Below are positions 1,625 through 17,237 of a DNA stretch of 18,649 bases, in pieces. The notes beneath the pieces were generated by a model. That model did not search any database. It was not told the DNA's origin and was given only the letters and a program-made list of their open reading frames with translations. The number at the start of each line of letters is the position of its first letter. Within the stretch, counting starts at the first letter, position 1. A program made the translations under genes and the position numbers. Source of the DNA: Candidatus Coatesbacteria bacterium (GTDB lineage Bacteria; RBG-13-66-14; B26-G2; WVWN01; G020348885); NCBI GenBank assembly GCA_020348885.1, contig CP070755.1, positions 747,734 to 766,382 of the forward strand, written 5' to 3'.

Positions 1625-2638
1625 ATGTCGGCGATTATAGAATGCACCCTCTGCCCGACCCGTTGCGTATTGGAGAACTACCAGCGGGGCGACTGCCGCG
1701 TCCGGATTAACGTCGAGGGGCGGTTGAAGACGCTGGTCTACGGGAAGCCGTGCACCGTCCACGTAGACCCGATGGAAAAGAAACCTCTCTTTCATTTCTT
1801 GCCCGATACGTCCATCTATTCGGTGGCCACCGCCGGGTGCAATCTCCACTGCAAGTACTGCCAGAACTGGGGCATCAGCCAGACGCCGCCGGAAAAGACC
1901 CGCAACGTCGACCTCGACCCGGGGCAAACCGTAGCCGGGGCGCTGGCCGCCGGGTGTAAATCCATAGCGTATACGTACTCGGAACCGATAGTCTTTTTCG
2001 AGTATACGGTTGACACCTGCCGGCTGGCCCGTAAGGAAGGCCTCCGGAACGTCCTGGTCACCGCCGGTTACGTCGAGGAAAAACCCCTGCGGGAGCTGTG
2101 CGAGGCGGCCGATGCCGCCAACGTCGATTTCAAGGCGATTACCGACGATTTCTACCGGGAGGTCTGCGGCGGGCGAATCAAGCCGGTCCAGCGCGCTTTG
2201 ACGATTATGCAGGAGATGGGCCTCTGGCTCGAGGTGACCAACCTGCTCGTCCCGACGCTTAACGATTCGCCGGAGATGGTCGAAGGCTTAATCCGTTGGG
2301 TACTCGACAACTTGGGCCCGGACGTCCCCCTCCACTTCTCCCGGTTCACGCCGACGTATCAGCTCGAGAACCTGCCGCCGACCTCCGTGGAGACGCTCAC
2401 AAAGGCCAGAGAAACGGCGCTCGAGGCGGGGGTACGTTTCCCGTACGTGGGGAACGTACCGGGGCACGAGGGCAACAACACCTACTGCCCCGGCTGCGGC
2501 CGCTTACTCGTGGGGCGTTTCGGCTTCCTCATAACCGACTACGATATCGTTGACGGGAAATGCGCCGGTTGCGGCGAGCCCATCCCCGGCGTGTGGGAAC
2601 GCGGCGACTGGGACGGGAGCATAAGGATAGTTATGTAG
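1625..2638 (+). CDS. AmmeMemoRadiSam system radical SAM enzyme
   Basis: The N-terminus 'ECTLCPTRC…GDCRVR…LKTLVYGKP…HVDPMEKKPLFHFLP…SVATAGCNLHCKYCQNWGISQ' carries the radical SAM CX3CX2C (C72/C76/C79). The C-terminal zinc-ribbon-like pair 'CPGCG…CAGCG' is also present. The layout and the motifs 'HVDPIEKKPLFHF' and 'CQNWxISQ' match the AmmeMemoRadiSam (PFL-activase-like) family. An AAGGA RBS lies about 13 nt upstream of the ATG. Confidence 0.8.
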   Translation: MSAIIECTLCPTRCVLENYQRGDCRVRINVEGRLKTLVYGKPCTVHVDPMEKKPLFHFLPDTSIYSVATAGCNLHCKYCQNWGISQTPPEKTRNVDLDPGQTVAGALAAGCKSIAYTYSEPIVFFEYTVDTCRLARKEGLRNVLVTAGYVEEKPLRELCEAADAANVDFKAITDDFYREVCGGRIKPVQRALTIMQEMGLWLEVTNLLVPTLNDSPEMVEGLIRWVLDNLGPDVPLHFSRFTPTYQLENLPPTSVETLTKARETALEAGVRFPYVGNVPGHEGNNTYCPGCGRLLVGRFGFLITDYDIVDGKCAGCGEPIPGVWERGDWDGSIRIVM

Positions 2639-2744: not shown

Positions 2745-3716
2745 TTATAAACGTGACCGCCGCCGCCCAAGCATCTCCAGAAAACACTCCAACCGTAGCC
2801 CAGCCTGCGCCGACAGCGGCCCCGGTCGGTCGCCCTCCAGGGTCAGCACCGGTACGTCCAGATGCCGCCTTATGAGCGCATCCTCGATGTGGCGGTAGCA
2901 AAAGCTCTGGACGTAGTTGATGACGCCCACTATCCCCCTTTTTTTCACTTCCTTCTTGATGTCTTTGAGTCGTGCCCAGACCCCGTAAGGGTAAGTATAT
3001 TCCGCGTACGCGGAAATCAGGTCGGGGGCGCCGGAGACCATCGCGAACTGCCTCGGTATCTCGTCGTAAACGATTCCGGCGCCCCGCTCGGTCAGGAAAT
3101 CGAACAGGCCCGAGAAGACGGGAGGAACGCCCAGAAGCCCCAGCCGCGTCTCCGGCGGCGACGGCTTTCGGGCTTTTGCCTCGGTTAAAAAGCCGTCCAC
3201 CCTCTCGGCGAAACCGTCCGCATCGCCTCCGCCCATGTCGCTGGCCGCCAGCAGGTAGTCGTGGTTTTCGGAACCGGTAATTCTATTCTCCTCCCACGTC
3301 AGCCTATCGATTTCCGCCAGGTCTTGCCTAACCGCCGCGAGGGCTTCGTACTGGTCGTGGGCGGCGCCCATCGCGTAGCCCAATCGCCCCGCGAGGCGTT
3401 CCACTTCGCGGGTAAGCTCGTCCCGGTCCGGCGCGTGTGGAAAGGCGAAAGGTATCACCTCGACGCCGGCGTCCTCCAGCGTCTCCATCAGGGCGATCGT
3501 GTTACTGCAATCGCCGCCGGTTACGCCGACGACCTTTTTGATTCCGTGCGAAATTACGATATCGAAAATCCCTTTGGTCCAACTGCAGCAGTTGCGCGGG
3601 AAGCCGGCACGCTCGGCCCGCCGGACTCCTTCGCCCGGGTCCGCACCGCCGATGAAAAGGTTATTTAAGTCAACCGGGCGCGAACCCGCGCCCAGTATCA
3701 CTTCTATCGGTAACAT
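2745..3716 (-). CDS. 2-hydroxyacyl-CoA dehydratase D-component / BadD / BcrC (HGD-D) family protein, as a lone subunit
   Basis: Cys-containing motifs 'NCCSWTKG', 'GGDCSN' and 'VINYVQSFCYRH' and the C-terminal 'LTLEGDRPGP…RLECFLEML' resemble the conserved core and C-terminus of HgdB/BcrC-type subunits. The 'RIEAFLEM'-like ending is recalled from memory. At 323 aa it is shorter than canonical HgdB. No HgdA partner or HgdC/activase ATPase lies within the window. Confidence 0.5.
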   Translation of the reverse strand: MLPIEVILGAGSRPVDLNNLFIGGADPGEGVRRAERAGFPRNCCSWTKGIFDIVISHGIKKVVGVTGGDCSNTIALMETLEDAGVEVIPFAFPHAPDRDELTREVERLAGRLGYAMGAAHDQYEALAAVRQDLAEIDRLTWEENRITGSENHDYLLAASDMGGGDADGFAERVDGFLTEAKARKPSPPETRLGLLGVPPVFSGLFDFLTERGAGIVYDEIPRQFAMVSGAPDLISAYAEYTYPYGVWARLKDIKKEVKKRGIVGVINYVQSFCYRHIEDALIRRHLDVPVLTLEGDRPGPLSAQAGLRLECFLEMLGRRRSRL

Positions 3717-3754: not shown

Positions 3755-4543
3755 TTAACTCGGCTCCTCGGTTTCCTCGTCTTCGGGGCTTAGCCTTATA
3801 AAGGTATAGTTTTCGCCGTGTTTTCGCTTGCCGCCGAAGCCGCCGCCCCGGGTCGCGAACTCGATTTCGTCGACGGTCATGTCCATCCAGGTCTCCTTGG
3901 AACGGCCCTCGTAGTATCGTACTAACATCTTCTGCCGGAGGCTGTATGTCAACTCGCAGTGTTCAGGTCCGTCCCAGGTAACTTTGTAGATAGCGTGTCC
4001 GGGACGTTCGTCCATCAGGTTGAGTAAGGTCTCGGCCTGCTTCATCGAATCGAACATTCGACTCCGGGACCCGAGGTATATCGTTTCTTCGGTATCGGAC
4101 GTTATCCGGTACGGATCCTCGTCTACGGCACCCAGCATCTCGTCCACGTACCGCTCCTCGTGGAAGTTCGGCCTATTTATACGCAGGGTAGCAACAAGCG
4201 AAGTATCTTCGGTCCCGCCGATCTCGGCGCTCTCCACGTCGAAGTACACGTCCACCCAGATAATGTCGTACTCGGGGTACTTGTGCTTATCGAAATAGTT
4301 AAAGAGCCGCTTAATATCTTTTTTCGTCGTTCCCGGCGCAACGGCTATCCTGAGCGTAACCGACGGCTCCTTAGCTTCCTCGTCAATGTCGACGCTGCCG
4401 ACCACGTACTCTACCGGCGGGGGTTTGTACGCCGCGTCGACCTCCCCACCGGTTTCGCCCTCGTCGCCGCCGCCACAACCGACCATTACCCCGACAAGCG
4501 CGACGAAAAGGGCAACCGACACCGATGCGTAAACCTTACTCAT
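3755..4543 (-). CDS. Putative lipoprotein of unknown function
   Basis: The N-terminal signal peptide ends in a lipobox-like 'VMVG|C' followed by a Gly-rich 'GGGDEGETGG'. The mature part is hydrophilic and acidic, with a C-terminal 'EDEETEEPS' tail. No family was recognised. The gene sits between coaX and the HGD-D-like gene with 28- and 38-nt gaps. Confidence 0.55.
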   Translation of the reverse strand: MSKVYASVSVALFVALVGVMVGCGGGDEGETGGEVDAAYKPPPVEYVVGSVDIDEEAKEPSVTLRIAVAPGTTKKDIKRLFNYFDKHKYPEYDIIWVDVYFDVESAEIGGTEDTSLVATLRINRPNFHEERYVDEMLGAVDEDPYRITSDTEETIYLGSRSRMFDSMKQAETLLNLMDERPGHAIYKVTWDGPEHCELTYSLRQKMLVRYYEGRSKETWMDMTVDEIEFATRGGGFGGKRKHGENYTFIRLSPEDEETEEPS

Positions 4544-4571: not shown

Positions 4572-5345
4572 CTATCTGTTCATCTTATTATAAGCGTACG
4601 ACAAACCTTTCAACGTCAGATCCGGATCCGTTACCTCGATATATTCGGAACATTCGACCACGTACCTGGCCAACCCGCCGGTCGCGACCACGGGGCACCT
4701 CTCGCCTACCTCCTCCCGGAACTTTTCGATCATACCGTCGACGGCCGCGGCGGTCCCGTATATCAATCCGGACCGTATCGAATCGGTCGTGTTTTTCCCG
4801 ACTGCCGACGCGGGCGCTTCGAACTCGACGGGCACGAGCCGGGCCGCCGACTCGGTAAGGGTCTTCGCCGCACGACCGAGGCCCGGCATTATCGCCCCGC
4901 CGACGTAATCTCCGTTGCCGTTCACCAGGTCGAGGGTAGTAGCGGTCCCGAAGTCGACTATAATTACGGGCGCGCCGAACGTCTCGCGGGCGGCGAGGGC
5001 GTCCACGACCCGGTCCGCGCCCACGTCTTCCGGCCGGTCGTAAGCGACGTTTATACCGAGCCGGGAGTAGTCCGGCCCCACGACGGTCGGCCTCCGGCCG
5101 AAATAACGTACCAGGGCCGTCTCGATTTTATCCGTCAGCGGCGGCACGACGCTGCAGACGATAGAATCCGCCGTCCCGATCTCGCGGCCCGCCCTCGATT
5201 CGATCAAACTAGCCATGAATAGACCGTACTCGTCGGCGGTCCGTTCGCCGCAAGTGGAGAGCCGAAAGCTGAAAAGCAGGTTTCCCTCGTCGAAAAGACC
5301 GCAGACCACCTGGGTGTTACCTATGTCGACTGCGAGAAGCTCCAT
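4572..5345 (-). CDS. coaX: Type III pantothenate kinase
   Basis: The N-terminus 'MELLAVDIGNTQVVCGLF' is the CoaX/Bvg-accessory-factor phosphate-binding motif (DxGNT). The later 'IIVDFGTATTLD' and 'GGAIMPG' are the second and third actin-fold ATPase motifs of CoaX. The 257-aa length is typical. A GAGGT RBS lies 6 nt upstream of the start. Confidence 0.85.
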   Translation of the reverse strand: MELLAVDIGNTQVVCGLFDEGNLLFSFRLSTCGERTADEYGLFMASLIESRAGREIGTADSIVCSVVPPLTDKIETALVRYFGRRPTVVGPDYSRLGINVAYDRPEDVGADRVVDALAARETFGAPVIIVDFGTATTLDLVNGNGDYVGGAIMPGLGRAAKTLTESAARLVPVEFEAPASAVGKNTTDSIRSGLIYGTAAAVDGMIEKFREEVGERCPVVATGGLARYVVECSEYIEVTDPDLTLKGLSYAYNKMNR

Positions 5346-5347
5346 GG

Positions 5348-6541
5348 TTACCTCTTCGCGGCCCGCTCGAAAACCTCGAGGAACCTGGCCGCCGATATTT
5401 CGACCGTCCAGCCCTCCTCGACGTACGAACGGCAGTTGGCGACCATCCCGGCCCAGAGAGAGTCGTCGGTCAGAAGACGCGCCACGGCTTCGCCGAACTT
5501 TTCGGTATCCCGGTCGACCAACCTACCGACCACGCCGTCGGCCACGGTCTCCCGGAAGCCGCCCTCCTTCACGGCGACGACCGGCGTGCCGCACGCCATC
5601 GCCTCGAGGGGCACGAGCCCGAACGGCTCGACCACCTGGGCCAGGGCCACTAACCTACACCGCTGATACTCCTTTACTATACCTTCTTCGGTAAGCATAG
5701 GCAACAGTTTGAGGGAAACGCCCAGCTCCGCGGCCCGTGTTTCCATATAACCCGATTCGCCCGGGAAGTCCCGATTATAGACCACCCGCAGTTCCGGCCG
5801 CACCGATTCCGGGATTTCGCCGAGAGATTCGAGTATAAAACGGTGCCCCTTGAACGGCGCGAGGACGCCGACGGACAGTACGGCGTTATCTCGTTCGCCC
5901 GTCGGAAGAGCCGTCGACGGAAACCGGGACAGATCCACACCCGGATAAATTACCTCCGGGAAAACGCCGTACGTCTTTATTAACGCTTCGCGGGTATGGT
6001 ACGAGTTCGCAACGATACAATCGGCGGCCGCGGCGTTCTTCCTGTCTCTCCCTCTCGCCAGCGTATCCGACGGGAGGTTTAAAAAAGCGCCCAACCGGTT
6101 TCGAAAACCATAGTCCGGGCGCGTCAACCGCGGGTGCTCGAACAACCTGCGGTGTACCTCCTGGGAGTAGTAAACCGTGGGGGTCTTCGCGAACCTCAAA
6201 AGCGACGGGGACTGCTCGACCCTGCAGTGGTCAACGAGTACCGCGCCGAAGCCGCCCGCGTCAATATCGCGGGCGACGCGCCCGGCCAATCGCCACAAGC
6301 GCCGGAGTCGCTCGACGTCAAAAGGGCGCCACAAAGGACCGACGTAGTCACTCACGGTCTTTAGCTTGAACGGGTAAACCGTTTCCGACGCGACGTAAGG
6401 TGTAAGCGGATAGAAGTCCCGGTCCGCCGACGCCGGCACGAAAAGGTGGAACTCCACGTCTGGAGACAACGCGGCCATCAAATCGTGAAGAAAGCGCTTC
6501 GCGCCGCCTGACGGCAGGTTATGGTAAACGGCTACGCGCAC
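5348..6541 (-). CDS. Glycosyltransferase family 4 (GT-B fold) protein
   Basis: It carries the '[19 protein letters not shown]' (EX7E-type) GT4 signature in the C-terminal half. The start is a GTG preceded by AGGGAGG, and the 5' end overlaps the upstream GT4 gene by 10 nt. The stop lies 2 nt before coaX. Confidence 0.8.
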   Translation of the reverse strand: MRVAVYHNLPSGGAKRFLHDLMAALSPDVEFHLFVPASADRDFYPLTPYVASETVYPFKLKTVSDYVGPLWRPFDVERLRRLWRLAGRVARDIDAGGFGAVLVDHCRVEQSPSLLRFAKTPTVYYSQEVHRRLFEHPRLTRPDYGFRNRLGAFLNLPSDTLARGRDRKNAAAADCIVANSYHTREALIKTYGVFPEVIYPGVDLSRFPSTALPTGERDNAVLSVGVLAPFKGHRFILESLGEIPESVRPELRVVYNRDFPGESGYMETRAAELGVSLKLLPMLTEEGIVKEYQRCRLVALAQVVEPFGLVPLEAMACGTPVVAVKEGGFRETVADGVVGRLVDRDTEKFGEAVARLLTDDSLWAGMVANCRSYVEEGWTVEISAARFLEVFERAAKR

Positions 6542-7671
6542 CGAGCGGCCTCCCTATAAACCTCCGCCGTTTCGCCGGCGGCCTTCGACCAGGAGAAATG
6601 ACCGGCCCGTTCCAACCCCGCGTCGCTGAGCTCGCTTCTCAATCGGTCGTTCTCCGTTATTCGTATCATTTCGGCCACGAACGCGCCGGCTTCGCCGGTC
6701 GGCACGAGGGAGCCCCACCGACCCACGACCTCCGAGACCGACGAATTATCGTACGCGATTACGGGGGTACCGCACGCCATGGCCTCCAGCGGCGGCAACC
6801 CGAACCCTTCGTATAGCGACGGGAACAGGAAGACCCGGGCGCCGCAATACAGGGCCGGCATCATTTCCTCGGATAAAAAACCGGTATAGGCTACTTCGCC
6901 ACCAACGATACCGCCGTGGGTACCTTCCGGCCATGTAAAACGGACGTTTCGGTAATATTCCGGGTTCCCCGTAAGCACAAGGGGTAGCGGCGCCCGGGAC
7001 TGCTCGCAGTATCGTCCATATATTTCCAACAAACCGCTGAGGTTTTTACGGTAATCGGTCGCTCCAACGTACAACAAATATTCGTCGGGAAGGTTAACTC
7101 GTTCGTTTAATCCACCGCAGCGAGCATCGGGTTTATATTGGGACGAACACGCTTCGTAGATAACGCGGATTTTGTCGGGCGGAACGCCCATATACCTGAC
7201 GATATCGCGCGCCGACGAGTTAGAAACGGTTATAACGGCCGCGGCCCGCCGCGCGGCGGCGGCCTGTATATTGAAGAAAACTTTCTCCCTCAATAGTAAC
7301 GACCGGCCCGGGAAGACAGCCGATATACAATCGTGAACGGTCAAAACGAACCGTTTCGGCGACCACGGCGGCACCACTTGCATATTATAATGCACGACCG
7401 CTACGTCCATTGCCCGGACGGCACGGGGCGTTTGTATCAAGTCGAATATGACCGACCGATATCGGTCGTGGTCGTCCGGGAGTTTTACCCCGGTGAAACT
7501 CGCTCCGTCGGGGAGCGACGGCTCCGGCGCGCCGGCCAGACCGAGAAAGCGGAGGTTTATGTCACCTTCCCCTTCTGATAACGCCGAATACAACTCCGCC
7601 GTATACCGCCCTATCCCCCGGAACCTGTGGGCGGTCTGCAACGGGCGTATATCGAACCCAACCTCTAACAT
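6532..7671 (-). CDS. Glycosyltransferase family 4 (GT-B fold) protein
   Basis: The N-terminus '[12 protein letters not shown]…GIGRYTAEL' and '[21 protein letters not shown]' are typical GT4 mannosyl/glucosyl-transferase motifs. An AGGGAA RBS precedes the start. It is the first gene of the GT4-GT4-coaX-lipoprotein-HGD-D operon. Confidence 0.8.
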
Positions 7672-7685
7672 CGTTCCCTTTAAGT

Positions 7686-7719
7686 AAAAAAGCAGGAACG
7701 ACGAAAACGCCGTTCCTGC
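7686..7719 (-). terminator. Rho-independent terminator of tatA
   Basis: On the - strand there is a perfect 9-bp stem GCAGGAACG / CGTTCCTGC with a 10-nt loop, followed directly by TTTTTT (plus strand 7686-7691 AAAAAA). It lies 32 nt downstream of the tatA stop. Confidence 0.6.
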
Positions 7720-7750: not shown

Positions 7751-7933
7751 CTATTTTTCCTTCTCTTCGTTATCGCGGGTAATCTCGTCGGTAATTTCTC
7801 GCGAAGCCTTTTTGAACTCGCGAATGCCCTTACCGAGGCCTTTACCTATCTCGGGCAGCCGCCGGGCACCGAACAGAATTAGGATTACAAGGAGAATAAG
7901 GAGTATCTCGGGAACGCCTATCGAACCGAACAT
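7751..7933 (-). CDS. tatA: Twin-arginine translocase subunit TatA/E
   Basis: The 60-aa protein 'MFGSIGVPEILLILLVILILFGARRLPEIGKGLGKGIREFKKA' has an N-terminal TM helix, the Gly hinge and an amphipathic helix with the conserved 'FG' and 'G…G.GIR.FKK' signature, then an acidic tail. A GGTGGTGA RBS precedes it. Confidence 0.8.
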   Translation of the reverse strand: MFGSIGVPEILLILLVILILFGARRLPEIGKGLGKGIREFKKASREITDEITRDNEEKEK

Positions 7934-7982: not shown

Positions 7983-8960
7983 TTAAAAACCCACCGACGC
8001 GGAAACGCGATGCGTACTACCGATACCGGGGTCACCCATGTACGCATAATCGACACCGAAAGCCATCCCGGCCGCCGCGATGCGTAGACCCGCGCCGCCG
8101 GAGATATCGGTACGTTCTTCCTGCCGCTTCTCGACGCCGAAGCGGAGGGCCACGACCCGCCTATACCACCACTCGGCGCCGCCGTGGATGTCCAGGCTCA
8201 AATTACCGGCGTTAAAGCCGGCGCCGACGTCGTACCCCGCGTTTTTCATATCGCCGTCAAAGGCCAACGTTAATTCGCTGTCGGCCGCCGTTATCGCTTG
8301 CGAGTACGAAGTCCCGAATTTCAGGTTGAACGGAATAGTCTCGGTCGTACCGGTGGACCACTCGATTCGGCCGACGATGTTCTGGGCGTGAACGCCGAAC
8401 TTGAACGGACCATACGGTCCCGCGAGAACGCCCAGGGCGACTACCTGCCCGGACGACGTACCCACGTCCGCCGTCCCCTGCCGTATATACACGAAGTTGC
8501 CGCCCAGGCTAATTTTCTTCCAAACCGGGCGCCCGTACGATACAAAATAGCCGTTATCGCTCCAGTTGACCTCGCGCCTGACGATCGGGCGCCTGTCTTC
8601 CGCGTCCGGATCGTCCCATTCGGTTATCACGATGTCCTGTACGCCCAGCCGCAACAAACCGCCACCGAACGTCCCGTATTTCCCGGCCCGATAGCAGCCG
8701 AAGATAGTATCGTAGTTCGCTAGACCGCCGAACGCGTAAGCGTGCATGAAACTCACTTCGTTCTGTTCGAGGGTCGCGAGTCCCGCCGGGTTCCAATAGG
8801 CGGCGGTCGAATCGTCCGCGACGGCGGAGAACGCACCGCCCATTCCCAGGGCACGGGCGCCAACGCCGTAGTTGAGGAACTCGCCGGCGTACTTATCGGC
8901 CGCCGACGCCGATATGGCCAACATCGCGGCGTATACTAAAATAACCGGTCTTTTTAACAT
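7983..8960 (-). CDS. PorV/PorQ-family outer-membrane beta-barrel protein (T9SS-associated shuttle/anchor family)
   Basis: The signal peptide (…AISASA|ADK) is followed by 'GVGARALGMGGAFSAVADDSTAAYWNPAGLA', the hallmark N-terminal motif of the PorV/PorQ family. The protein is Gly/aromatic-rich with alternating beta-strand-like segments and ends in Phe, typical of OM barrels. At 325 aa it is closer to PorQ size than PorV size. An AAGGGGA RBS precedes it, with a 28-nt gap after the C25-peptidase gene. Confidence 0.55.
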   Translation of the reverse strand: MLKRPVILVYAAMLAISASAADKYAGEFLNYGVGARALGMGGAFSAVADDSTAAYWNPAGLATLEQNEVSFMHAYAFGGLANYDTIFGCYRAGKYGTFGGGLLRLGVQDIVITEWDDPDAEDRRPIVRREVNWSDNGYFVSYGRPVWKKISLGGNFVYIRQGTADVGTSSGQVVALGVLAGPYGPFKFGVHAQNIVGRIEWSTGTTETIPFNLKFGTSYSQAITAADSELTLAFDGDMKNAGYDVGAGFNAGNLSLDIHGGAEWWYRRVVALRFGVEKRQEERTDISGGAGLRIAAAGMAFGVDYAYMGDPGIGSTHRVSASVGF

Positions 8961-8988
8961 CGCCGTCCCCTTCGTGGGGTTGATTAAG

Positions 8989-9279
8989 CTATTTCATTTT
9001 GATTAACTTCTGCTTAATCTCGCACTTGTCCGTCCCCGACCGGGCGACTACTTTATAGAAATAGACGCCGTTGGCTATCTCATCGCCGTCGCGGTCGCGG
9101 CCGTCCCAGTACAATTCGTTGTAACCCGGTGCCAGGCCGCGGGTTTCCAACTTCCTGATAAGCTTGCCGGTGACGGTGTAAATTTTTACGACGGCGCTAT
9201 CCAAATGCGAACTGTTGACGAAGGTGAAGTAAGTCCCGGCGCCGGCGAACGGGTTCGGGCAATTGTAAACGTTCGAAAG
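8989..9279 (-). other. T9SS (Por secretion) type-A C-terminal sorting domain of the C25 peptidase
   Basis: The C-terminal ~96 aa read 'LSNVYNCPNPFAGAGTYFTFVNSSHLDSAVVKIYTVTGKLIRKLETRGLAPGYNELYWDGRDRDGDEIANGVYFYKVVARSGTDKCEIKQKLIKMK'. This matches the canonical (Y)PNPF … V.IYd..G..V..l…..G.h…WDG.…G…..GVYFY… pattern and the basic tail of TIGR04183-type C-terminal domains. Confidence 0.75.
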
Positions 9280-12200
9280 CGCTAGGGCGCCGGCGACCCG
9301 CACTTCCACCGAACCTATCGTTTCGTTTTTCAAGTTATCGTAAGCCCTTACGTAAATCGTGTGGTCTCCTTCGGTCAGCGCGATTTTCTTCCTGATCTCG
9401 CCGGACCTATAATCGCCAACGGCAGGTTTGAAGTACTTAGTGATGTCCGTACCGTCGTTCGAAGAATTTAACGTCGAATCCACCGAATAAGCAATCGGCC
9501 TGAAGTCCACGTCCACATCTTCCGTATAGGACGAAACCATGACACCCGACGGGTCGCTGATAGATATAATCATCTCCGGATTCCCCGTTACTGGGTCCCC
9601 GGACCTGAAGCCGTAGTCGTCGAAATATATATCGACAGAGGGGCCGGTCGTATCTTCGGAGTCGGCTTCGCCGTGAACGCTTATTTCGTAGTCTTCGGGC
9701 AGTACATAATCCGCGTAGTTACCGGGGTCGTACGCGTAAACGCGTATCAACGCGTCGTCTATATCGCTAACTCCGCCGTCGGGATCGTATCCCCAGCCCG
9801 CTGTTACGGGGACCGGAATCTCAACGTCGAACCGACCGGCGTTAATTTCGCCGACGGCCCGCGACAACAGCCTTTCACGATGAACGTCGCCGACTTGGGA
9901 ATCTTCGCCGGTAAAGTAATACGGCCTGTCGTATAAAGAAACCTCCACGATACCGTTCGCCACACCGGGCACCGAACCGGTAACGTCCAGTACCCCACCG
10001 CGTTGAACGGGGTTAGGGATGGCCGAAACGTCGGTAACATCGGGACGCGGTACGGCGATCCGCATCGACGGGTCGCCCATAAGCGTATAAATAACCCATA
10101 ACCGCGTGCTGTCCGAGTACATCTTACCGCCCCAGAAAGCTTCGCCCAGAGTTATGGGCTCGTCGGGTAACTCCTGGCCGGGGAACAAGTTCAAATAGAA
10201 ACCTTCAAGATAATCGGCCTGGGACCCTTCGGTCCCGAGTCGAGAAGACCCGGTCGTCGCGACGGCGCCGCGGCCGGCGGGGTGCATCAAATACTCGTTT
10301 ATACATTCGTTGCTCGTAAGGTCCGACATCAACGGTATATCGTCGAAGTAGCTGTTAGTACAAGACATTTCCTTGACTATCGGGTAGCGGTTATAGTTAA
10401 CAAGGTCGTCGACGTCGTAATGGTTCCTTACCGCATGGACGAACAGGTCTTCGTGGGCCCATATCTGGGGACCGCCGTGGCCCGAGTACTGGACCAATAA
10501 ACGGTCGAAATTCGCGACCAGGTCCGGCGTCATCTCGGCTCGCACAAGGTCCATACGGTCGAACCTGGGGTCATAATCGAACCCGGGATGTCCCCTGTTC
10601 ATCCATTCTATATACATCTTATCGATGCCCAAACCAGGCGGAACGTACGGCGGGATTAAATATTCTTCGTAGTCTCTCGTAAAATGGCCACCGCCGCCCT
10701 CCACCTTGTCGTTATTATCTGCTACTAAAAGCGTCCTCGTTCTCCACGTTCCGAAATCCATTGACCGGTCGTACGCGACTATCTTATCGACCATATTCGA
10801 GACCTGTTCCTCGAAACGAGCCGGCAAACGAGCTATAAACGCGTCCGCTTGCAGGTCGTCGCCTTCGACGCAGACGAAGAAGTTGTCGCTGGCGCTGTCG
10901 CCGTTCGGGATAGTATATAGAAGCATAGTCGGAAGCAAGTTCCCGCCGAAATCCCGGTATTCCTTATCGTAATATCCGTAATTATCCTTATAATCGTAGC
11001 TGGCGTCGCCTACGAGTATTACGAATTCGGGTCTCGTCGAAAGGTCGTCGTAACGCGCTTTTACGAAGTTCCGTATCGCGACGGGGTCGAAGACACCAGC
11101 GGAAAACTCGTCGTACACGTCCGTAACCTTATACACGCCCGTTGACAGTCCCTGGTTCCGGCGCAAGTTAGCAAGGGGCTGAACGTTGTCGAAGAACTTC
11201 CTGTTGGTAATTATTAACAAGTCCTCGGCCTTGGCGACACGTAACGACGACGGCTCGTCCCTATAAAGGTCCGCCGGTTCAAGCTTGGCTCCAGCGTCGC
11301 ACGCGACGAACCACGTACGCCCGTCCAGGACTTCGTCTTCGAATCGGACTGTATATGTACCTGCATCTTCGATAGTTTCGAAACCTGTAATAATCCGGCC
11401 GCCGGTAACGTCGTAAACGTACAAATCGGACCCGGAAAACCCGTCTATCTCGAACAACATATCGCCGTGGTGGTCGGGCGGATTGGAAAACCTCAAGTAG
11501 TCGTTATACGCTTTGTAGTACCTTGGGTATTCCAGCTCGAAGTGGCTGAAATATATCGGATGGTTACCGCCGATACCCTGTAGTTCCTCGACTATCAAAT
11601 TATTCCCGCCGTCATTGAATATGCCCGGGTCGTCAACGACGACTTCCTCTTCGATTTGAGTATCGATAGGCCACGAATCCCTTTCCCATAGCAAGTGCTC
11701 TTCGTCCTTCTTATTAGCGTATATCCTCGTATAATGCGGGGCATTCGACCCGGGCGCACTACGTAATAAAAACTTAAAAAGCGTGGTTATGTTCGCCGCA
11801 ACGTCGTCCAATCCCCGGATGCTAAAGCTCTCTCTGTGGTCGCTACCGGGCGCGACTGAAAACCAGAACCATGTCTCCTCGCCTTCGTCTATTTTTGAGT
11901 TACTGCCCTCGTATAACCTTTCCTCTTCGAAATACGAACGCCAGGGGTAAGCGTCGACCGTTTCTATGTTTGGGTTCGACGGCGTCCCGTCTTTCTGGGT
12001 ATAGCGTAAACCGGGTTCGTCGCCCACTACGAGCCAATAAACGTTGTAGTTGGAGTATTTATGTCTTTCCAAGACGAACTGGTTACCCGTGTCTTCGAAG
12101 AAATGGGTGTTGTGGGCGAAGAATTCAACGTAATCACCGTCGTCGAAACTCCCGTCTCCTTCGCCGGCTACTATCATCGGGAGCTCCTCGATGCCCATAA

Positions 12201-13230
12201 CCGGGTCATCCAAATTCGTCGGCAACATTTCGCCGGTCCCCGCGTACAAGCGAAGGTTCCGCGGGTCTATAGAAGTATCGAAGCCGAAATCCGTAAGATA
12301 CTCGTACGAAAGACGATAAAAACCCGTGTTTTCTATAATTACCTTGTATGCGTGCGGCCACCGACCGGCCCAGATTTCGCCGTTGTTTTGCGTTTCACTG
12401 CCGGTCCGCGGCCATAGCGAAGCGACCGAATAGTTTAATACGGTCCGCGAGAGAGCTTTTTCGAACGAGTCGTCCGCGTCGAAACCTTCTTCTATAATGC
12501 CCGCTCGTCTCCGCCCGCCAGAGTGAATAACCTTGACGTGAATTTTACTGTAAACCCGCAAAGTACGTTCGGCCGTCTCGTAAGAGTACGCGTACGCGCC
12601 AACGCGGATCAAGCGTAAACCTCGGACTATCGAACTTCCTACTATCTCGGCGGCTTTTATAGGGTAAGTTCCTATTCCGTATGACGAATCGTCGTAAACG
12701 AAATCTTCGACTATAGCTTCGTATCCGCTTCTCTTAACGACCTTCTCGCCCGGCCGCGGGCAAAGGGCAATGTCTCTAACCATATAATAATCAATGTCCT
12801 CTACAGCAACCGTAACGTCCGAACCGACGGGAACGGCGATCCAAACATTCCTCCTAAGGAGTTCCGGCGCACCCGTTTCGCCGGCAGCCGAACAACCTGC
12901 CACGTGATACCGGGAGAACGACCGCCCAGCGACCTCCACCTCCGAGACGGTCGAATCGCCGAACTCGACCTCGAATACGGTCGACGAATCAGTAGCCGAT
13001 ATAAGGGTAACCTCTGTCGTTTCCGGCGGCGTTTCTCTCACGGCACCCGGCCCTACCTTTTCGACCGCGCCGAGGTCGCGAGAGGTCAACCCGTCGGTCA
13101 CATCGGCGGCGTTAGTCGCGGTATCGTCGGTAACCGCCGACTTATCCTTTCTCGTCAAGTCGGCATCCAAGGCAAAAGGCGAAACGGTCGCTACAATCGC
13201 CACCGAAAGCAATATCATCGCACGGAACAT
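8989..13230 (-). CDS. Secreted C25-family (gingipain-like) cysteine peptidase with a C-terminal type-A T9SS sorting domain
   Basis: It has a signal peptide (MFRAMILLSVAIVATVSPFALDA) and a GGAGG RBS. The central region 'LLIITNRKFFDNVQPLANLRRNQG…YKVTDVYDEF…VAIRNFVKARYD…EFVILVGDASYD…SDNFFVCVEGDDLQAD…ARLPARFEEQVSNMVDKIVAYD' follows the peptidase C25 catalytic-domain pattern. A His-Cys dyad candidate is '…QYSGHGGPQIW…' then '…VKEMSCTNSYFDD…'. The last ~96 aa form the T9SS sorting domain listed separately. Confidence 0.7.
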   Translation of the reverse strand: MFRAMILLSVAIVATVSPFALDADLTRKDKSAVTDDTATNAADVTDGLTSRDLGAVEKVGPGAVRETPPETTEVTLISATDSSTVFEVEFGDSTVSEVEVAGRSFSRYHVAGCSAAGETGAPELLRRNVWIAVPVGSDVTVAVEDIDYYMVRDIALCPRPGEKVVKRSGYEAIVEDFVYDDSSYGIGTYPIKAAEIVGSSIVRGLRLIRVGAYAYSYETAERTLRVYSKIHVKVIHSGGRRRAGIIEEGFDADDSFEKALSRTVLNYSVASLWPRTGSETQNNGEIWAGRWPHAYKVIIENTGFYRLSYEYLTDFGFDTSIDPRNLRLYAGTGEMLPTNLDDPVMGIEELPMIVAGEGDGSFDDGDYVEFFAHNTHFFEDTGNQFVLERHKYSNYNVYWLVVGDEPGLRYTQKDGTPSNPNIETVDAYPWRSYFEEERLYEGSNSKIDEGEETWFWFSVAPGSDHRESFSIRGLDDVAANITTLFKFLLRSAPGSNAPHYTRIYANKKDEEHLLWERDSWPIDTQIEEEVVVDDPGIFNDGGNNLIVEELQGIGGNHPIYFSHFELEYPRYYKAYNDYLRFSNPPDHHGDMLFEIDGFSGSDLYVYDVTGGRIITGFETIEDAGTYTVRFEDEVLDGRTWFVACDAGAKLEPADLYRDEPSSLRVAKAEDLLIITNRKFFDNVQPLANLRRNQGLSTGVYKVTDVYDEFSAGVFDPVAIRNFVKARYDDLSTRPEFVILVGDASYDYKDNYGYYDKEYRDFGGNLLPTMLLYTIPNGDSASDNFFVCVEGDDLQADAFIARLPARFEEQVSNMVDKIVAYDRSMDFGTWRTRTLLVADNNDKVEGGGGHFTRDYEEYLIPPYVPPGLGIDKMYIEWMNRGHPGFDYDPRFDRMDLVRAEMTPDLVANFDRLLVQYSGHGGPQIWAHEDLFVHAVRNHYDVDDLVNYNRYPIVKEMSCTNSYFDDIPLMSDLTSNECINEYLMHPAGRGAVATTGSSRLGTEGSQADYLEGFYLNLFPGQELPDEPITLGEAFWGGKMYSDSTRLWVIYTLMGDPSMRIAVPRPDVTDVSAIPNPVQRGGVLDVTGSVPGVANGIVEVSLYDRPYYFTGEDSQVGDVHRERLLSRAVGEINAGRFDVEIPVPVTAGWGYDPDGGVSDIDDALIRVYAYDPGNYADYVLPEDYEISVHGEADSEDTTGPSVDIYFDDYGFRSGDPVTGNPEMIISISDPSGVMVSSYTEDVDVDFRPIAYSVDSTLNSSNDGTDITKYFKPAVGDYRSGEIRKKIALTEGDHTIYVRAYDNLKNETIGSVEVRVAGALALSNVYNCPNPFAGAGTYFTFVNSSHLDSAVVKIYTVTGKLIRKLETRGLAPGYNELYWDGRDRDGDEIANGVYFYKVVARSGTDKCEIKQKLIKMK

Positions 13231-13355
13231 CAGTATCTTCCCTCCGCTGAACTATCTCCCGCAGGACGCGGTATCGTGAAAGTAAAAATCGGACGAAATT
13301 ACCATACTTCGGGTAAGGGCGCAATACATACTTGACCGCCGTACTTACCGATTAT

Positions 13356-13372
13356 CGTTGACACAGTCAACG
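13356..13372. promoter_or_regulatory. Perfect 7-3-7 palindrome CGTTGAC-ACA-GTCAACG in the 325-bp region upstream of the C25 peptidase gene
   Basis: It was read directly and is ~125-140 bp upstream of the peptidase ATG. It also contains TTGACA/TTGACT -35-like hexamers on both strands. It is a candidate dimeric-regulator operator. Confidence 0.35.
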
Positions 13373-13555
13373 AACTCGTAATGCCGATTATTTAATTCCG
13401 GTTGAATGAACAGGGTATCGAAACGTTGGGTTCTGTTAGTGCTCCTGTTCGTCGGTAGGTCTCGGCCGAACGATTTCCGGGCCGGGTTGTGTAGACAGCC
13501 GCCAAAACAAAAAGGCCGGTAATACGTACTTACAGTAATCCCGTAACTGATAACG

Positions 13556-14929
13556 TTACACTCCGGGCGTTTTTTTTACCAAACCGTCCAGTAACACGCC
13601 TAGCTGCGACGTTAATCGACGCCGGTAAAACCGGGATATTAACGCCGGCTCCGGCGCCACGGCAGCTTCACCTTTACGCCAATTCTCGAACGCTCTTACG
13701 AATCGACGGGCGACTCCACTAACGTCATCTGGTCCCGTGACCGATTCCTCGCCGTAAACGGCACGCACGAACCGGGCTGCTTCGCCCTCCGGTACCGCGG
13801 CCAGAACCGGCCTGCCCGCGCCCATATATTCGTATAACTTACCCGGGACCCTCTCGGGTTCGAAGGCAGGCCCCATTATTAGTAAGAGGAGGTCGGCCGC
13901 CTTACAGAAACGCAGGCCTTCCCGGTGGGATAAGTAACCCGCAAAAACGACTTTGCCGCCTATACCGAGGTTTTTTGCTTCCATTACGTCGTCGTCGGTA
14001 TTTACGCCGATCAGATACAACCTCGCCGCTTCTTTAAAGGCGTCGCTCTTCTCGCCGGCGGCGGCAAACGCACGGAGGATATCGACTGCCGTCAAGCCCG
14101 TGCCGAAGTTCCCGAAATGCACGATTATGAACTCGTTCCTCGAACGTTCTACCGGGTCTTCGTCGAAATCCGGCGGATCGAAGCCGTTGGGGATATTTAC
14201 GGCGGGTTTAACCGGCCCTATTATTGAACGCATTCGTTTAAACGTAGGCTCGGTGTTGAATACGAGGCCGTCGGCGTAACCGAGTACCCACCTTTCGAGT
14301 TTCGCGTTTACCGTCCGGTGAAGCGACGGCAGCTGTTTACGCCAAAAAAGGTTCCCCCAGACGTCTCTGAAATCGGCGACCCAAGGTAACCCGGTCAGCC
14401 TTTTTATCACCGAACCTACGAAGTGAGCCGACTCCGGCGGCGACGTCGTGTAAACGGCCTTTATGTTGTCCCGGCGGCATACCCGCAAGGCTTTGTATAG
14501 AGCGAACGGCGCCCACGCGACCTGAACGTCCGGTACAAAGAAGTACTTACTCGCGGCTGCGAAACAACCGTATCCGGATTTCGTCCCGGATTTTCGCTTC
14601 TCCTCGCGCGCTTCGAGTTCCCCGAACGACCGAAGAACCTCGATTTCGTCGCGCTTCCGGTTAGACCGACCTATTCCCTTCGACGCCAAGTAACCCAGCC
14701 GGAAAGGATCAAAGGACCCGGTTCTTACGACTCGTACTTCCGGTATTTCGTCTAACGGCGTCGGGTCATAGGAGCGATAAGCTATGTCCTTGACCGTAAG
14801 TATCGTCGGATCCCAGCCGAATTCGGGAAGGTATTTTGCGAACTTGACGGTACGCTGAACACCGCCGCCGCCGATGGGCGGGAAGTAATACGCGTTTACC
14901 AAAAGCTTTTTTAGGTTGGCGTTACCCAC
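13556..14929 (-). CDS. GT-B fold glycosyltransferase (GT4-like); tandem paralog B
   Basis: The N-terminus 'LLVNAYYFPPIGGGGVQRTVKFAKYLPEFGWDPTILT' has the Gly-rich loop of GT4-type N-terminal domains. The C-terminal half has 'GKLYEYMGAGRPVLAAVPEGEAARFV', an EX7E-like nucleotide-sugar binding region. The GTG start overlaps the TAG stop of the upstream paralog (TAGTG). About 30-35% of residues are identical to paralog A by eye, clustered in the N-terminal and C-terminal motifs. Confidence 0.65.
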   Translation of the reverse strand: MGNANLKKLLVNAYYFPPIGGGGVQRTVKFAKYLPEFGWDPTILTVKDIAYRSYDPTPLDEIPEVRVVRTGSFDPFRLGYLASKGIGRSNRKRDEIEVLRSFGELEAREEKRKSGTKSGYGCFAAASKYFFVPDVQVAWAPFALYKALRVCRRDNIKAVYTTSPPESAHFVGSVIKRLTGLPWVADFRDVWGNLFWRKQLPSLHRTVNAKLERWVLGYADGLVFNTEPTFKRMRSIIGPVKPAVNIPNGFDPPDFDEDPVERSRNEFIIVHFGNFGTGLTAVDILRAFAAAGEKSDAFKEAARLYLIGVNTDDDVMEAKNLGIGGKVVFAGYLSHREGLRFCKAADLLLLIMGPAFEPERVPGKLYEYMGAGRPVLAAVPEGEAARFVRAVYGEESVTGPDDVSGVARRFVRAFENWRKGEAAVAPEPALISRFYRRRLTSQLGVLLDGLVKKTPGV

Positions 14930-16227
14930 TAATCACCGATTAACGAGTCCAATAATTCAGCGTAAGCCCGGGCGATTTCCCGGCGGTCGTATCGTTTTAA
15001 CACCGAATTCGGGGTTCCCGGTTCGTTAAGCTCTCCCTGTTTATACCGTCCGTAGAGTTCGGTTAAAACAGCCGCTACGCCGTCGGCGTCGTCCGGAGAG
15101 ACGACGTAACCACCGTCGGTCTCCACGATTAACCGAGCCGCTTCGCCGCCCGGCGGGACCATCGCTATAACAGGGCGCCCGGCCCGTAAGTACTCGAATA
15201 TCTTCCCGGTCAGCGTCGTTCCCATGGCCGGCCCGTCGCCGATAATCAAAAGAGACGCGTGAGCCGAAACTATCTCCGAGACAGCATCCCGGTGAGGAAC
15301 GCAAGTTCGCATAACGACCGGTAGCCCGGACGCTTTTACGGCGGCCAATACGTCGTCGGACGCCGCGCCGATGAACCTTATCTCTATATCGTCGGCGCCG
15401 AAAACCCCGGACGCGATAGCCAGGCGAACCCCGTCAAGGAACGTAAACGGGTCCCTCCCGGCGTAGAACGTACCGGCATAAACTACGGTGAATTTACCTC
15501 GACGTTCGGGAACAACGCCTTCGAAATCGTCTTCGTCATAACCGTTGGGAATCGTAATAACTGGCGCGTCCAACCTGAAACGGCGGCGATAGTCGTCAGC
15601 CATCGTATCGGTTACGGTTACGACCGCCGATGCGGCCGATAAAACGCGCTGTTCCGCGAGTCTCCACCCGACAGCGTGGAAGGCGGTGGGCGCGCCGCCG
15701 AACGGGTTGTAAGTCCAGGCGTCTCTGTAGTCGAGTACCAGAGGTAAGCGGGTGATTCGCGACAAACGCGCGCCCAGCATATGGCCGGTATATGGAGGGG
15801 CCGTATTTATGACAGCCGTCAAACGGTAAACATCGGGAATCCGAAAAAACGCCGAAAGTGCCGGCCGGAGAAAACGGAATTGCGGGTCCGGGAACGAAAA
15901 AAACCGTTTTAATCGCGTGCCGAACGATTCACCCGTATTCTTCCGTTCGCGGCTCCCGCGGTTTCCGCGTTCGTGGTTCTTGAAAGTCTTATATAAACTC
16001 GCTACCCCGGCGAACGGGTCGGCGACAGGAACGCGAAACACGCGGACGCACGGCGGTATCTGCTCTAGAAGCACCGGGTCGCTATCGGTTTTACGCGGGT
16101 TGTCGGCCGCCAACACGACGGGCGTATACCCGAACTCCGGCAGGTATTTCGCCAGTTTCAACGCTCTTATAACTCCGCCGCCGCCGGCCGGCGGAAAGAA
16201 GTAGGATATTAATAAGACTTCTCGCAT
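14929..16227 (-). CDS. GT-B fold glycosyltransferase (GT4-like); tandem paralog A
   Basis: The N-terminus 'VLLISYFFPPAGGGGVIRALKLAKYLPEFGYTPVVLA', mid-motif 'FPDPQFRFLRPA' (compare 'VPDVQVAWAPFA' in paralog B) and 'GKIFEYLRAGRPVIAMVPPGGEAARLIV' parallel the downstream gene. It has an ATG start but no obvious SD. The start lies 11 nt after a terminator-like hairpin. Confidence 0.65.
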   Translation of the reverse strand: MREVLLISYFFPPAGGGGVIRALKLAKYLPEFGYTPVVLAADNPRKTDSDPVLLEQIPPCVRVFRVPVADPFAGVASLYKTFKNHERGNRGSRERKNTGESFGTRLKRFFSFPDPQFRFLRPALSAFFRIPDVYRLTAVINTAPPYTGHMLGARLSRITRLPLVLDYRDAWTYNPFGGAPTAFHAVGWRLAEQRVLSAASAVVTVTDTMADDYRRRFRLDAPVITIPNGYDEDDFEGVVPERRGKFTVVYAGTFYAGRDPFTFLDGVRLAIASGVFGADDIEIRFIGAASDDVLAAVKASGLPVVMRTCVPHRDAVSEIVSAHASLLIIGDGPAMGTTLTGKIFEYLRAGRPVIAMVPPGGEAARLIVETDGGYVVSPDDADGVAAVLTELYGRYKQGELNEPGTPNSVLKRYDRREIARAYAELLDSLIGD

Positions 16228-16280: not shown

Positions 16281-17075
16281 CTACTGCGGCAGCGGTTTAA
16301 TATCGTACTTGCTGAGGGACGATTCGAAAGTATAATGCGGACCGTTCGGGTATCCGATTTCGTCACCGGACATCTTGACGGTTCCCTTTTCCGGCTTGAA
16401 CCAGAAGTACTGCTCGAAATCGATTTTACTTTCGCCGCCCTGGGTTAAGTAGTAGGTAACGTATAAATTGCGCCGGATTTTGTACGCGTCGGTAAATATA
16501 CCGATTTCAGTGGTTACGTCTCCCTTCACAACCGTCGAGCAGTTAACCTCCACGTCCACCGTATCGTCGTGACCGTCGTTGTCTATATCGGCGGGCAACC
16601 CAATCGCCAGCGGCGAGATTCCCGTAACATTTACGACTTGCCAACTGGTACCGACCGAAAAGGGATATTCGGCCCAGAACCATACCGGATCGAAATAAAC
16701 CGAGTCGGTCATACCACGCGTCCCGTCGTAGTACTCGCGCCCGAACATCTTGTAAGTGTTCGTCTCGTTGTCCTGGACAAGGAAAACCTGATACGGCAGT
16801 TCGCCGTCTACGGCCCTTACGAAGTTCTGTACGGCCTCGTTGCCAATGACCGTCGAACCGTCGAAAGTATAGGTAACCGAGAACGGGTCGCCCAGGGGAA
16901 CGTTATTCTGATACCGCTGGTACGTATAAATCCAATAACTCTCGTCCGTATTGGGCAGGTAAGTCGGTATCTGTTCGTCAGGCGGCGTGGTTCCGTCTTC
17001 GGTGCATCCGACGGTAATAACCAAAAAAACGGCCGTTAAAAGCGCGGAGGTTAAAATGAAGCCGTTTTTTCTCAT
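16281..17075 (-). CDS. Putative lipoprotein of unknown function
   Basis: The signal peptide ends in a lipobox-like 'ITVG|C' (MRKNGFILTSALLTAVFLVITVGC). The mature part is rich in Tyr/Trp/Asp with 'DIDNDGHDDTVDVEV'. A strong RBS GGGAGAGGAG precedes the ATG. The start lies 45 nt downstream of the tRNA-Arg 3' end. No family was recognised. Confidence 0.5.
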   Translation of the reverse strand: MRKNGFILTSALLTAVFLVITVGCTEDGTTPPDEQIPTYLPNTDESYWIYTYQRYQNNVPLGDPFSVTYTFDGSTVIGNEAVQNFVRAVDGELPYQVFLVQDNETNTYKMFGREYYDGTRGMTDSVYFDPVWFWAEYPFSVGTSWQVVNVTGISPLAIGLPADIDNDGHDDTVDVEVNCSTVVKGDVTTEIGIFTDAYKIRRNLYVTYYLTQGGESKIDFEQYFWFKPEKGTVKMSGDEIGYPNGPHYTFESSLSKYDIKPLPQ

Positions 17076-17119: not shown

Positions 17120-17193
17120 CGCGCCCGGAGGGATTCGAACCCCCAGCCTACGGATCCGTAGTCCGTTGCTCTATCCAATTGAGCCACGGGCGC
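17120..17193 (-). tRNA. tRNA-Arg (anticodon ACG)
   Basis: The - strand reads GCGCCCG-TG-GCTC-AATTGGATA-GAGC-A-ACGGA-CTACGGA-TCCGT-AGGCT-GGGGG-TTCGAAT-CCCTC-CGGGCGC-G. It folds as a perfect 7-bp acceptor stem with U8, G18G19 in the D-loop, a 5-bp anticodon stem, loop C-U-ACG-G-A, a T-loop TTCGAAT and a G·U pair in the T-stem. That G·U pair would be an A·C mismatch on the other strand. The discriminator is G and CCA is not encoded. Confidence 0.85.
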
Positions 17194-17208
17194 CCGTCGT
17201 TCGGCTAG

Positions 17209-17237
17209 AATATACCTTAACCGTTTTCGACTGTCAA
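17209..17237 (-). promoter_or_regulatory. Near-consensus sigma70-type promoter for tRNA-Arg (TTGACA-N17-TATATT)
   Basis: The - strand reads …aaCTTGACAgtcgaaaacggttaaggTATATTctagccgaacgacgg[tRNA]. The -35 is perfect, the spacer is 17 nt, the -10 matches 5 of 6, and the -10 lies 15 nt upstream of the mature tRNA 5' end. Confidence 0.55.

Follow-up and report, generated by a model that had tools for sequence, protein, structure and literature searches.

A PorU sortase gene beside a PorV/PorQ-family barrel gene in Candidatus Coatesbacteria, with a conserved glycosyltransferase pair upstream

A long protein with a gingipain-like C25 peptidase domain, encoded beside an outer membrane barrel and several glycosyltransferases, can be regarded either as a secreted protease with its own accessory genes or as a component of the secretion apparatus itself. 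This question is raised by an 18,649-nucleotide (nt) stretch of contig CP070755.1, hereafter the window, which belongs to a metagenome-assembled genome (MAG) of Candidatus Coatesbacteria (assembly GCA_020348885.1). The original prediction for this DNA described a 1413-amino-acid (aa) type IX secretion system (T9SS) cargo protease, joined unusually to a gene of the attachment machinery within one co-directional glycan-synthesis cluster. It also tentatively suggested a candidate-phylum host outside Bacteroidia, which agrees with the source of the sequence. None of the three outcomes named in advance as refuting the prediction came about: the C-terminus matches a T9SS C-terminal-domain model, the barrel does not belong to another family, and the neighbourhood is conserved in relatives. 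The present analysis covers the window and its flanks. All open reading frames (ORFs) of the original prediction are found, at the same positions, in an ORF listing of the window, and the E-values of domain matches among the encoded proteins, as low as 1e-132, lie far beyond chance. As argued below, the locus is very probably the core of a T9SS attachment complex, composed of the sortase PorU and a barrel of the PorV/PorQ family.

The 1413-aa protein, encoded at 8989-13230 on the minus strand, is a PorU orthologue and thus the T9SS C-terminal signal peptidase/sortase. It scores 443.4 bits against the NCBIfam model "type IX secretion system sortase PorU" (NF033707; curated cutoff 420), with aa 294-1409 spanning positions 7-1092 of the 1095 in the model. 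In a phmmer search of the PDB, the best match is PorU of Porphyromonas gingivalis (6ZA2; E 4.9e-35), whose chain residues 15-1151 are colinear with query residues 267-1409. Gingipain catalytic domains match far worse, with E-values of only ~1e-3 to 1e-4 (best 2e-4). An AlphaFold2 model of residues 60-1075 (predicted local distance difference test, pLDDT, 87.7; predicted TM-score, pTM, 0.90) also retrieves 6ZA2 as the top PDB match in Foldseek, with gingipain catalytic domains and prodomains ranking next. The architecture consists of a signal peptide, an acidic linker, a prodomain (aa 73-241, 12508-13014; Propeptide_C25, 49.7 bits), an N-terminal domain cluster, the C25 catalytic domain (aa 672-1058, 10057-11217; Peptidase_C25, 239.9 bits), immunoglobulin (Ig)-like domains, and a type-A T9SS C-terminal domain (CTD; aa 1325-1413, 8992-9258; TIGR04183, 30 bits against a cutoff of 23; FlgD_ig, 37 bits). 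The C25 peptidase and the type-A CTD were both anticipated by the original prediction. In the NCBI record of the source MAG, the gene is annotated as a "hypothetical protein".

The residues expected of a sortase are in place. His917 (10480-10482) lies in a GHGG motif that aligns with the GHGG of 6ZA2, and Cys956 (10363-10365), in an SC motif, aligns with the TATC motif of that structure. His917 is invariant across an alignment of 16 homologues, and Cys956 and Arg996 (10243-10245) are invariant across the seven closer homologues. P. gingivalis PorU carries an arginine, Arg722, 32 residues after the catalytic cysteine, which is conserved in PorU orthologues and absent from gingipains (Gorasia et al.; PMC4560394). 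Arg996 aligns with the PorU arginine in the comparison with 6ZA2, and it is not invariant in the looser 16-sequence alignment. At the C-terminus, the NCPNPF and NGVYFY motifs and the terminal lysines are conserved among the seven homologues. PorU is among the proteins that the T9SS exports, and it retains its CTD (PMC11285876), which accounts for the textbook CTD of the 1413-aa protein. By analogy with P. gingivalis and Flavobacterium johnsoniae, the Coatesbacteria protein would likewise keep its own CTD after secretion. Taken together, the match to the PorU model, colinearity with 6ZA2, fold, catalytic residues, arginine, and CTD identify the protein as the sortase rather than an ordinary cargo protease.

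The cargo reading nevertheless deserves attention. It holds that the C25 protein is a gingipain-like secreted protease served by a dedicated PorQ-like barrel and by glycosyltransferases, which together would form a private anchoring or glycosylation module. Its appeal lies in the gingipain-type prodomain, C25 domain, and type-A CTD that the protein carries, in a neighbouring barrel that is PorQ-sized and falls below the PorV equivalog cutoff, and in the formal listing of PorU as a T9SS cargo (Table 2 of PMC5445135). However, the protein is colinear with PorU from end to end, and the regions covered include two that have no equivalent in gingipains, the three-domain N-terminal cluster and the Ig-like domains. 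It also passes the PorU equivalog cutoff and has the arginine of PorU orthologues that is missing from gingipains. Finally, bona fide PorU proteins scoring 513 and 951 bits bear a prodomain as well, so this domain is no marker of gingipains. We consider the cargo reading very improbable. The name PorU2 was also considered for the protein and rejected; its 160 bits on that model (cutoff 450) do not exceed what bona fide PorU proteins reach there (169-178 bits). Our literature search found nothing on the names "PorU2/PorV2".

The main departure of this PorU from the solved one lies at its N-terminus. Residues 1-266 are without counterpart in P. gingivalis PorU, as seen from the alignment to 6ZA2, and comprise the signal peptide, an acidic Thr-rich linker, and a domain of the Propeptide_C25 type. 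The prodomain of the gingipain Kgp (5MUN) matches this N-terminal domain in a PDB sequence search (E 4e-6), and Foldseek matches include the RgpB prodomain chains of 4IEF (TMt ~0.8) and, again, 5MUN. Thus, the protein shares with the gingipains RgpB and Kgp a prodomain fold, the C25 catalytic fold, and a type-A CTD, whereas those gingipains are without the N-terminal three-domain cluster of PorU and the conserved arginine after the catalytic cysteine, and their CTD is cleaved. The extension recurs elsewhere. Equivalent N-terminal regions are carried by the two PorU proteins that score 951 and 513 bits on NF033707, and PF08126 is listed for most homologue matches of the window PorU in a database search. 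A literature search for discussion of prodomain-bearing PorU returned none.

Gingipain prodomains hold the zymogen latent, and the P. gingivalis PorU structure was deposited as a "dimeric latent" form (title of 6ZA2). A prodomain in cis therefore suggests that latency is controlled differently here from the dimers of P. gingivalis PorU. Judging from the presence of this domain, the window PorU may be made as a zymogen and kept latent in cis by its gingipain-type prodomain until export.

What follows porU strengthens its assignment. The next gene (7983-8960, minus strand; 325 aa) begins 28 nt past the porU stop and encodes a 14-strand barrel of the PorV/PorQ family, as the original prediction had proposed; NCBI annotates it as a "PorV/PorQ family protein". 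It passes the family model NF033709 over its full length (128.7 bits, cutoff 90). A sequence search against the PDB gave no match for the barrel. Its AlphaFold2 model, built from 36 homologues (pLDDT 90.6), shows 14 long strands and is closest in fold to two chains of F. johnsoniae translocon structures, 8GL6_F (TMq 0.73) and 6H3I_F (TMq 0.64). Chain F of both entries is taken here to be PorV. The FadL, TodX, and TbuX barrels follow these PorV chains in the fold search. The barrel is presumed to act as the surface anchor and shuttle partner of PorU.

Such a gene pair is not unusual. The P. gingivalis porU (PG0026) and porV (PG0027) genes are adjacent, 75 bp apart, as are their F. johnsoniae orthologues Fjoh_1556 and Fjoh_1555 (PMC5445135), and in Bacteroidota the two genes canonically stand side by side. 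With the long protein identified as PorU and this pairing known, the apparent oddity of a cargo gene fused to attachment machinery disappears, and this part of the original prediction does not stand. The window shares with both model organisms the gene order and a short gap between the genes (28 nt, compared with 75 bp in P. gingivalis), the succession of PorU domains from N-terminal cluster to CTD, a His/Cys dyad with the sortase-type arginine, and a FadL-like barrel partner of 14 strands. It differs from them in the ~266 extra N-terminal residues of PorU, including the gingipain-type prodomain, and in a shorter barrel (325 aa) that scores below the PorV and PorQ equivalog cutoffs. A co-oriented tatA in the apparent unit, a pair of GT4 glycosyltransferase paralogues upstream, and a host in Candidatus Coatesbacteria rather than Bacteroidota further set it apart.

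The pairing also holds among uncultured relatives. A search of metagenome contigs with the seven closer PorU sequences reached clade members only. In the clade loci (L002-L017, L025, and L105; L001 is the window sequence), whose PorU proteins are 36-87% identical to that of the window, a barrel of the window type comes next wherever the locus extends far enough, which applies to at least 13 of them. Beyond the clade, a PorV-family gene directly follows porU in L019 (NF033707, 513 bits), L020 (951 bits), and L106, all with PorU proteins of ~25% identity, and two PorV/PorQ-family genes follow it in L058 (29% identity; 435 bits). A barrel gene lies 3 kb downstream of a PorU-like gene in L103. The prodomain-bearing PorU loci of the L020/L019 type share with the window the combination of Propeptide_C25 and PorU architecture and the PorV-family gene that follows. 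They differ in having PorV-leaning barrels, no glycosyltransferases, and housekeeping or cargo genes as neighbours (dnaE-accA-trm112 upstream, an M6-like CTD protein downstream). More precisely, dnaE-accA precedes porU-porV in L019 and dnaE-accA-trm112 does so in L106, trm112 stands directly before the PorU-like gene in L103, and a large CTD protein follows porV in both L019 and L020, with a Peptidase_M6 domain in the L019 protein.

Two further observations concern porU and T9SS cargo within the clade. In CP070633.1, the "complete" Coatesbacteria chromosome of bin961, porU is present as two ORFs at ~0.31 Mb and ~1.94 Mb. An 854-aa ORF (L016:7842-10406) matches PorU residues 59-682 and follows the lipoprotein-GT4-GT4 string, and a 1093-aa ORF (L015:7224-10505) matches residues 648-1413 and precedes barrel-tatA-coaX. 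The two overlap by ~35 residues, and the split reflects either a real rearrangement or a misassembly. In L004, an M10 metallopeptidase with a Por_Secre_tail CTD (18836-20041) lies downstream of the porU block, a few kb away; cargo with a type-A CTD thus exists in the clade.

Which member of the PorV/PorQ family the barrel represents is less certain. Several results weigh against a simple PorV assignment. The barrel falls below both equivalog models, with 38.6 bits on PorV (NF033710; cutoff 250) and 38.8 bits on PorQ (NF033711; cutoff 220). Its nearest model is the unpublished "PorVQ2" of NCBI, whose N-terminal half gives the best equivalog-level score (115.6 bits against a cutoff of 325). Because these equivalog cutoffs are missed, the barrel is assigned at the family level only. 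In addition, the L058 locus (8045-15529) has the order GT4 homologue-PorU-barrel-barrel. Its first barrel is the orthologue of the window barrel (36% identity) and leans towards PorVQ2, and its second scores 90.9 bits on PorV. Such a pair points to the window-type barrel as a paralogue in its own right, and given the second, more PorV-like barrel of L058, the window barrel may not be the PorV orthologue.

It is accordingly quite possible, if short of probable, that the barrel is a separate PorV/PorQ paralogue, PorQ-like or "PorV2"-like, and that the canonical PorV is encoded elsewhere in the genome. Besides the equally poor scores on the two equivalogs and the L058 pair, this reading draws on the barrels that adjoin other PorU proteins, which lean clearly towards PorV (171 and 235 bits), and on a homologue of the window barrel in a Poribacteria MAG that stands alone, away from any PorU. 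Nevertheless, in the model organisms the place directly after porU is occupied by porV, and the barrel is closest in fold to PorV chains, though no PorQ chain is among the matches listed for comparison. Either assignment leaves the barrel in the PorV/PorQ family.

The organization of the locus bears on which neighbours belong to the pair. The gene tatA (7751-7933, minus strand; NF011430, 78.5 bits against a cutoff of 62; TIGR01411, 69 bits) follows the barrel gene in every relative, and a terminator-like hairpin (7692-7719, minus strand), whose 12-bp stem includes 8 GC pairs and is followed by a T-run, lies directly after tatA, as it does in the relative with 82% PorU identity (L002). On the other side, porU is preceded by a promoter-like motif (13294-13324, minus strand; TTG, ~20 nt, TAnTTT). 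Across the regions upstream of porU in nine loci, down to ~38% PorU identity, TTG-~20 nt-TA(A/G)TTT is the sole conserved block. The porU-barrel-tatA unit is therefore bounded by a conserved promoter-like motif and a strong terminator-like hairpin. In our reading, the motif looks like the -33/-7 promoter type of Bacteroidota and not like the classic sigma-70 pair, which hints at a transcription apparatus in the Coatesbacteria phylum similar to that in the Fibrobacteres-Chlorobi-Bacteroidetes (FCB) group. The region's best sigma-70-like match (TTGACA, 17 nt, TATATT; 11/12) stands in contrast to it and precedes tRNA-Arg (site 17120-17237). A functional tie between tatA and the T9SS was considered and rejected; co-orientation is its sole support and T9SS cargo uses Sec, and tatA is taken as incidental.

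The gap between the upstream GT4 gene and porU measures 325 nt in the window and 325-420 nt across the window and its close relatives. It is only ~100 nt in relatives at ~40% identity, where the porU start lies upstream of the tblastn match. Three units are likely from this layout: lipoprotein-GT4-GT4, porU-barrel-tatA, and GT4-GT4-coaX-lipoprotein-HGD-D. Of the single co-directional cluster originally proposed, the shared orientation stands, and the single unit gives way to this gap with its promoter-like motif and to the hairpin after tatA.

Are the glycosyltransferases, then, part of the attachment system? The upstream unit begins with a predicted lipoprotein of 264 aa (16281-17075, minus strand; lipobox LVITVGC). 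It continues with GT4_u2 (14929-16227, minus strand; 432 aa; Glyco_transf_4, 52 bits), the stop of which overlaps the start of GT4_u1 by 1 nt, and with GT4_u1 itself (13556-14929, minus strand; 457 aa; Glyco_trans_4_4, 40 bits; Glyco_transf_4, 33.5 bits). These two enzymes are paralogues with 33% identity over their full length. Downstream of the hairpin lies a second pair of 379 and 397 aa (6532-7671 and 5348-6541, both minus strand) with strong Pfam GT4 matches. All four genes pass at least one Pfam model of the GT4 N-terminal domain; matches to the C-terminal domain are strong for the downstream pair and marginal for the upstream pair (30.4 and 23.6 bits, cutoff 27). The downstream series continues with coaX (4572-5345), a second predicted lipoprotein of 262 aa (3755-4543), and an HGD-D family gene (2745-3716), all on the minus strand. 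Profile matches, which for coaX and the HGD-D gene come from the domain scan, agree with the earlier naming of the GT4 genes, tatA, coaX, and the HGD-D and AmmeMemoRadiSam genes.

Conservation separates the two pairs. The order lipoprotein-GT4-GT4-porU-barrel-tatA-coaX-lipoprotein-HGD-D is kept in more than 12 loci, down to 36-40% PorU identity, and the proposed C25-PorV/Q-GT synteny is thereby confirmed for the upstream pair across the clade. The relatives at ~40% PorU identity carry Coatesbacteria or Zixibacteria labels. The downstream pair is found only in the window sequence itself and in L002/L003 (82% PorU identity). In the ~40%-identity relatives, it is absent and coaX directly follows tatA. 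Being confined to the closest relatives, it is recognizable as a two-gene insertion of recent date, placed between the tatA terminator and coaX; it probably lies outside the porU unit. The glycan-synthesis locus of the original prediction is thus retained for the upstream pair and set aside for the downstream one. A weak PMT_2/GT-C-like ORF (36-1508, plus strand; 32 bits, cutoff 26), once counted as part of it, is rejected as a member, given its opposite strand, weak match, and absence even from the relative with 82% PorU identity. The two predicted lipoproteins hold fixed positions across the clade: the first precedes the GT4 pair and the second lies between coaX and HGD-D. Neither falls in a Pfam or NCBIfam family. 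The 264-aa protein is 43-85% identical among relatives, and a hidden Markov model built from its orthologues found nothing in L058.

Outside the clade, homologues of the upstream enzymes (the GT4_u family) recur beside attachment genes. The subfamily is recognized by the motifs YFPPxGGGG and W[VI]xD[FY]RDxW. One such homologue precedes PorU by 75 nt in L058. In L022 (651-7776), from a Zixibacteria-labelled MAG, another is the second gene downstream of a bona fide PorZ (NF052228, 265.9 bits, cutoff 260; L022 and L024 span 262-266 bits), in the order PorZ-GT4-GT4_u-unannotated protein (~495 aa)-GT2. PorZ is the protein that delivers anionic lipopolysaccharide (A-LPS). Similar arrangements occur in L024 (6223-13847), L030 (5864-13741), and L035, with PorZ in the last two found by tblastn only. 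A metagenome scan with the GT4_u family alignment yielded 80 loci totalling ~0.9 Mb, which were screened by tblastn and NCBIfam. An attachment-complex gene is present in 5 of the 80, namely L025 (of the Coatesbacteria type), L058, and the PorZ loci L024, L030, and L035; by our own estimate, chance would place such a gene in ~1 locus or fewer. The universal single-copy gene coaX appears only in the one Coatesbacteria-type locus. L045 and L077 have a sub-threshold PorZ-like CTD protein beside a WbaP-like initiating transferase.

These linkages bear on three claims of different reach. The upstream GT4 pair possibly helps to build the acceptor glycan or glycolipid used for anchoring, a suggestion drawn from gene neighbourhood. 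No curated model for biosynthesis of A-LPS or an anchor glycan matched, and the support is genomic linkage. A broader proposal, which we regard as rather unlikely, casts the GT4_u subfamily as the dedicated synthase for that acceptor, be it glycan or glycolipid, and couples it outside Bacteroidota to the attachment complex, with PorU latency provided by a prodomain in cis. The partners would be porU and the barrel gene in Coatesbacteria and in the lineage of L058; in lineages labelled Zixibacteria, the partner would be porZ. Several findings count against any such role. Four other PorU loci (L018, L019, L020, and L106) are without a glycosyltransferase nearby; the clade synteny includes plainly unrelated genes (coaX and HGD-D), which makes gene order by itself weak evidence; the lineage-variable gap of ~100-325 nt, with its promoter-like motif, parts the pair from porU; and the 5 loci among 80 are phylogenetically clumped, representing three or four lineages.

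The third claim, slightly favoured here, is that porU and the barrel gene are what they seem and all glycosyltransferase neighbours are functionally unrelated, kept in place by slow rearrangement and, elsewhere, met by chance. It accommodates the coaX, lipoprotein, and HGD-D genes of the conserved block, the separate promoter-like motif of porU, and the distant PorU loci without glycosyltransferases. It also fits the very large size of the GT4_u family (more than 2000 matches) and the occurrence of one homologue in an ordinary cluster resembling those for the LPS core, with a GT9 heptosyltransferase. It explains less readily why the GT4_u link recurs in separate lineages, with PorU in L058 across a 75-nt gap and with PorZ in L022, L024, L030, and L035. 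This recurrence exceeds the estimate of about one locus in 80, and coaX did not recur outside the clade. As an analogy only, the exosortase/PEP-CTERM system also links a protein-sorting transpeptidase genetically to GT4 polysaccharide genes, and the upstream enzymes of the window weakly match the PEP-CTERM glycosyltransferase models TIGR04063 and TIGR03088, far below cutoffs. The enzyme family and the sorting signal of that system are unrelated to those of the T9SS.

The remaining features of the window lie at its edges. The AmmeMemoRadiSam radical SAM gene (1625-2638, plus strand; TIGR04337, 370 bits) is convergent with the HGD-D gene, an arrangement retained in the relative with 82% PorU identity, and no AMMECR1 or Memo partner is visible within the window. 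In an Rfam scan of the whole window, tRNA-Arg(ACG) (17120-17193, minus strand) was the only element detected; the 325-nt gap ahead of porU gave no RNA match.

With PorU and the PorV/PorQ-family barrel as the core of an attachment complex, the locus can be given a working scheme, most of it modelled on P. gingivalis and F. johnsoniae. PorU would be exported by Sec and then by the T9SS via its own uncleaved CTD, and the barrel would hold it on the cell surface. There, PorU would cut the CTD off other cargo and either release the cargo or transfer it to a glycolipid anchor. The conserved upstream GT4 pair might build the glycan or glycolipid acceptor, a step that is suggested more weakly, and the downstream GT4 pair and the GT-C-like gene would be neighbours by recent insertion or chance. 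A point to set against this scheme is that the T9SS is seen here through the window and its flanks, and any translocon and motor genes (SprA/Sov, PorK/L/M/N) would lie beyond that reach.

As a gene pair, porU-porV is textbook material; here a known system is met in a phylum about which little is known. Reviews describe the T9SS as a system of Bacteroidota, possibly present in other FCB phyla (PMC11285876), and NCBI taxonomy places Coatesbacteria among the unplaced candidate phyla. Our literature search found no report on the T9SS in Candidatus Coatesbacteria, and the present locus documents a T9SS attachment module in that lineage. The variant features are the prodomain-bearing PorU and the recurrent GT4 linkage, which elsewhere also involves PorZ. 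The occurrence of a prodomain-bearing PorU in many uncultured lineages implies a latency mechanism other than the solved, dimer-based one. The GT4 subfamily that recurs beside porU or porZ supplies candidate genes for anchor chemistry outside Porphyromonas. If the dedicated synthase proved true, it would give a genomic handle on cargo anchoring in phyla where A-LPS is unknown.

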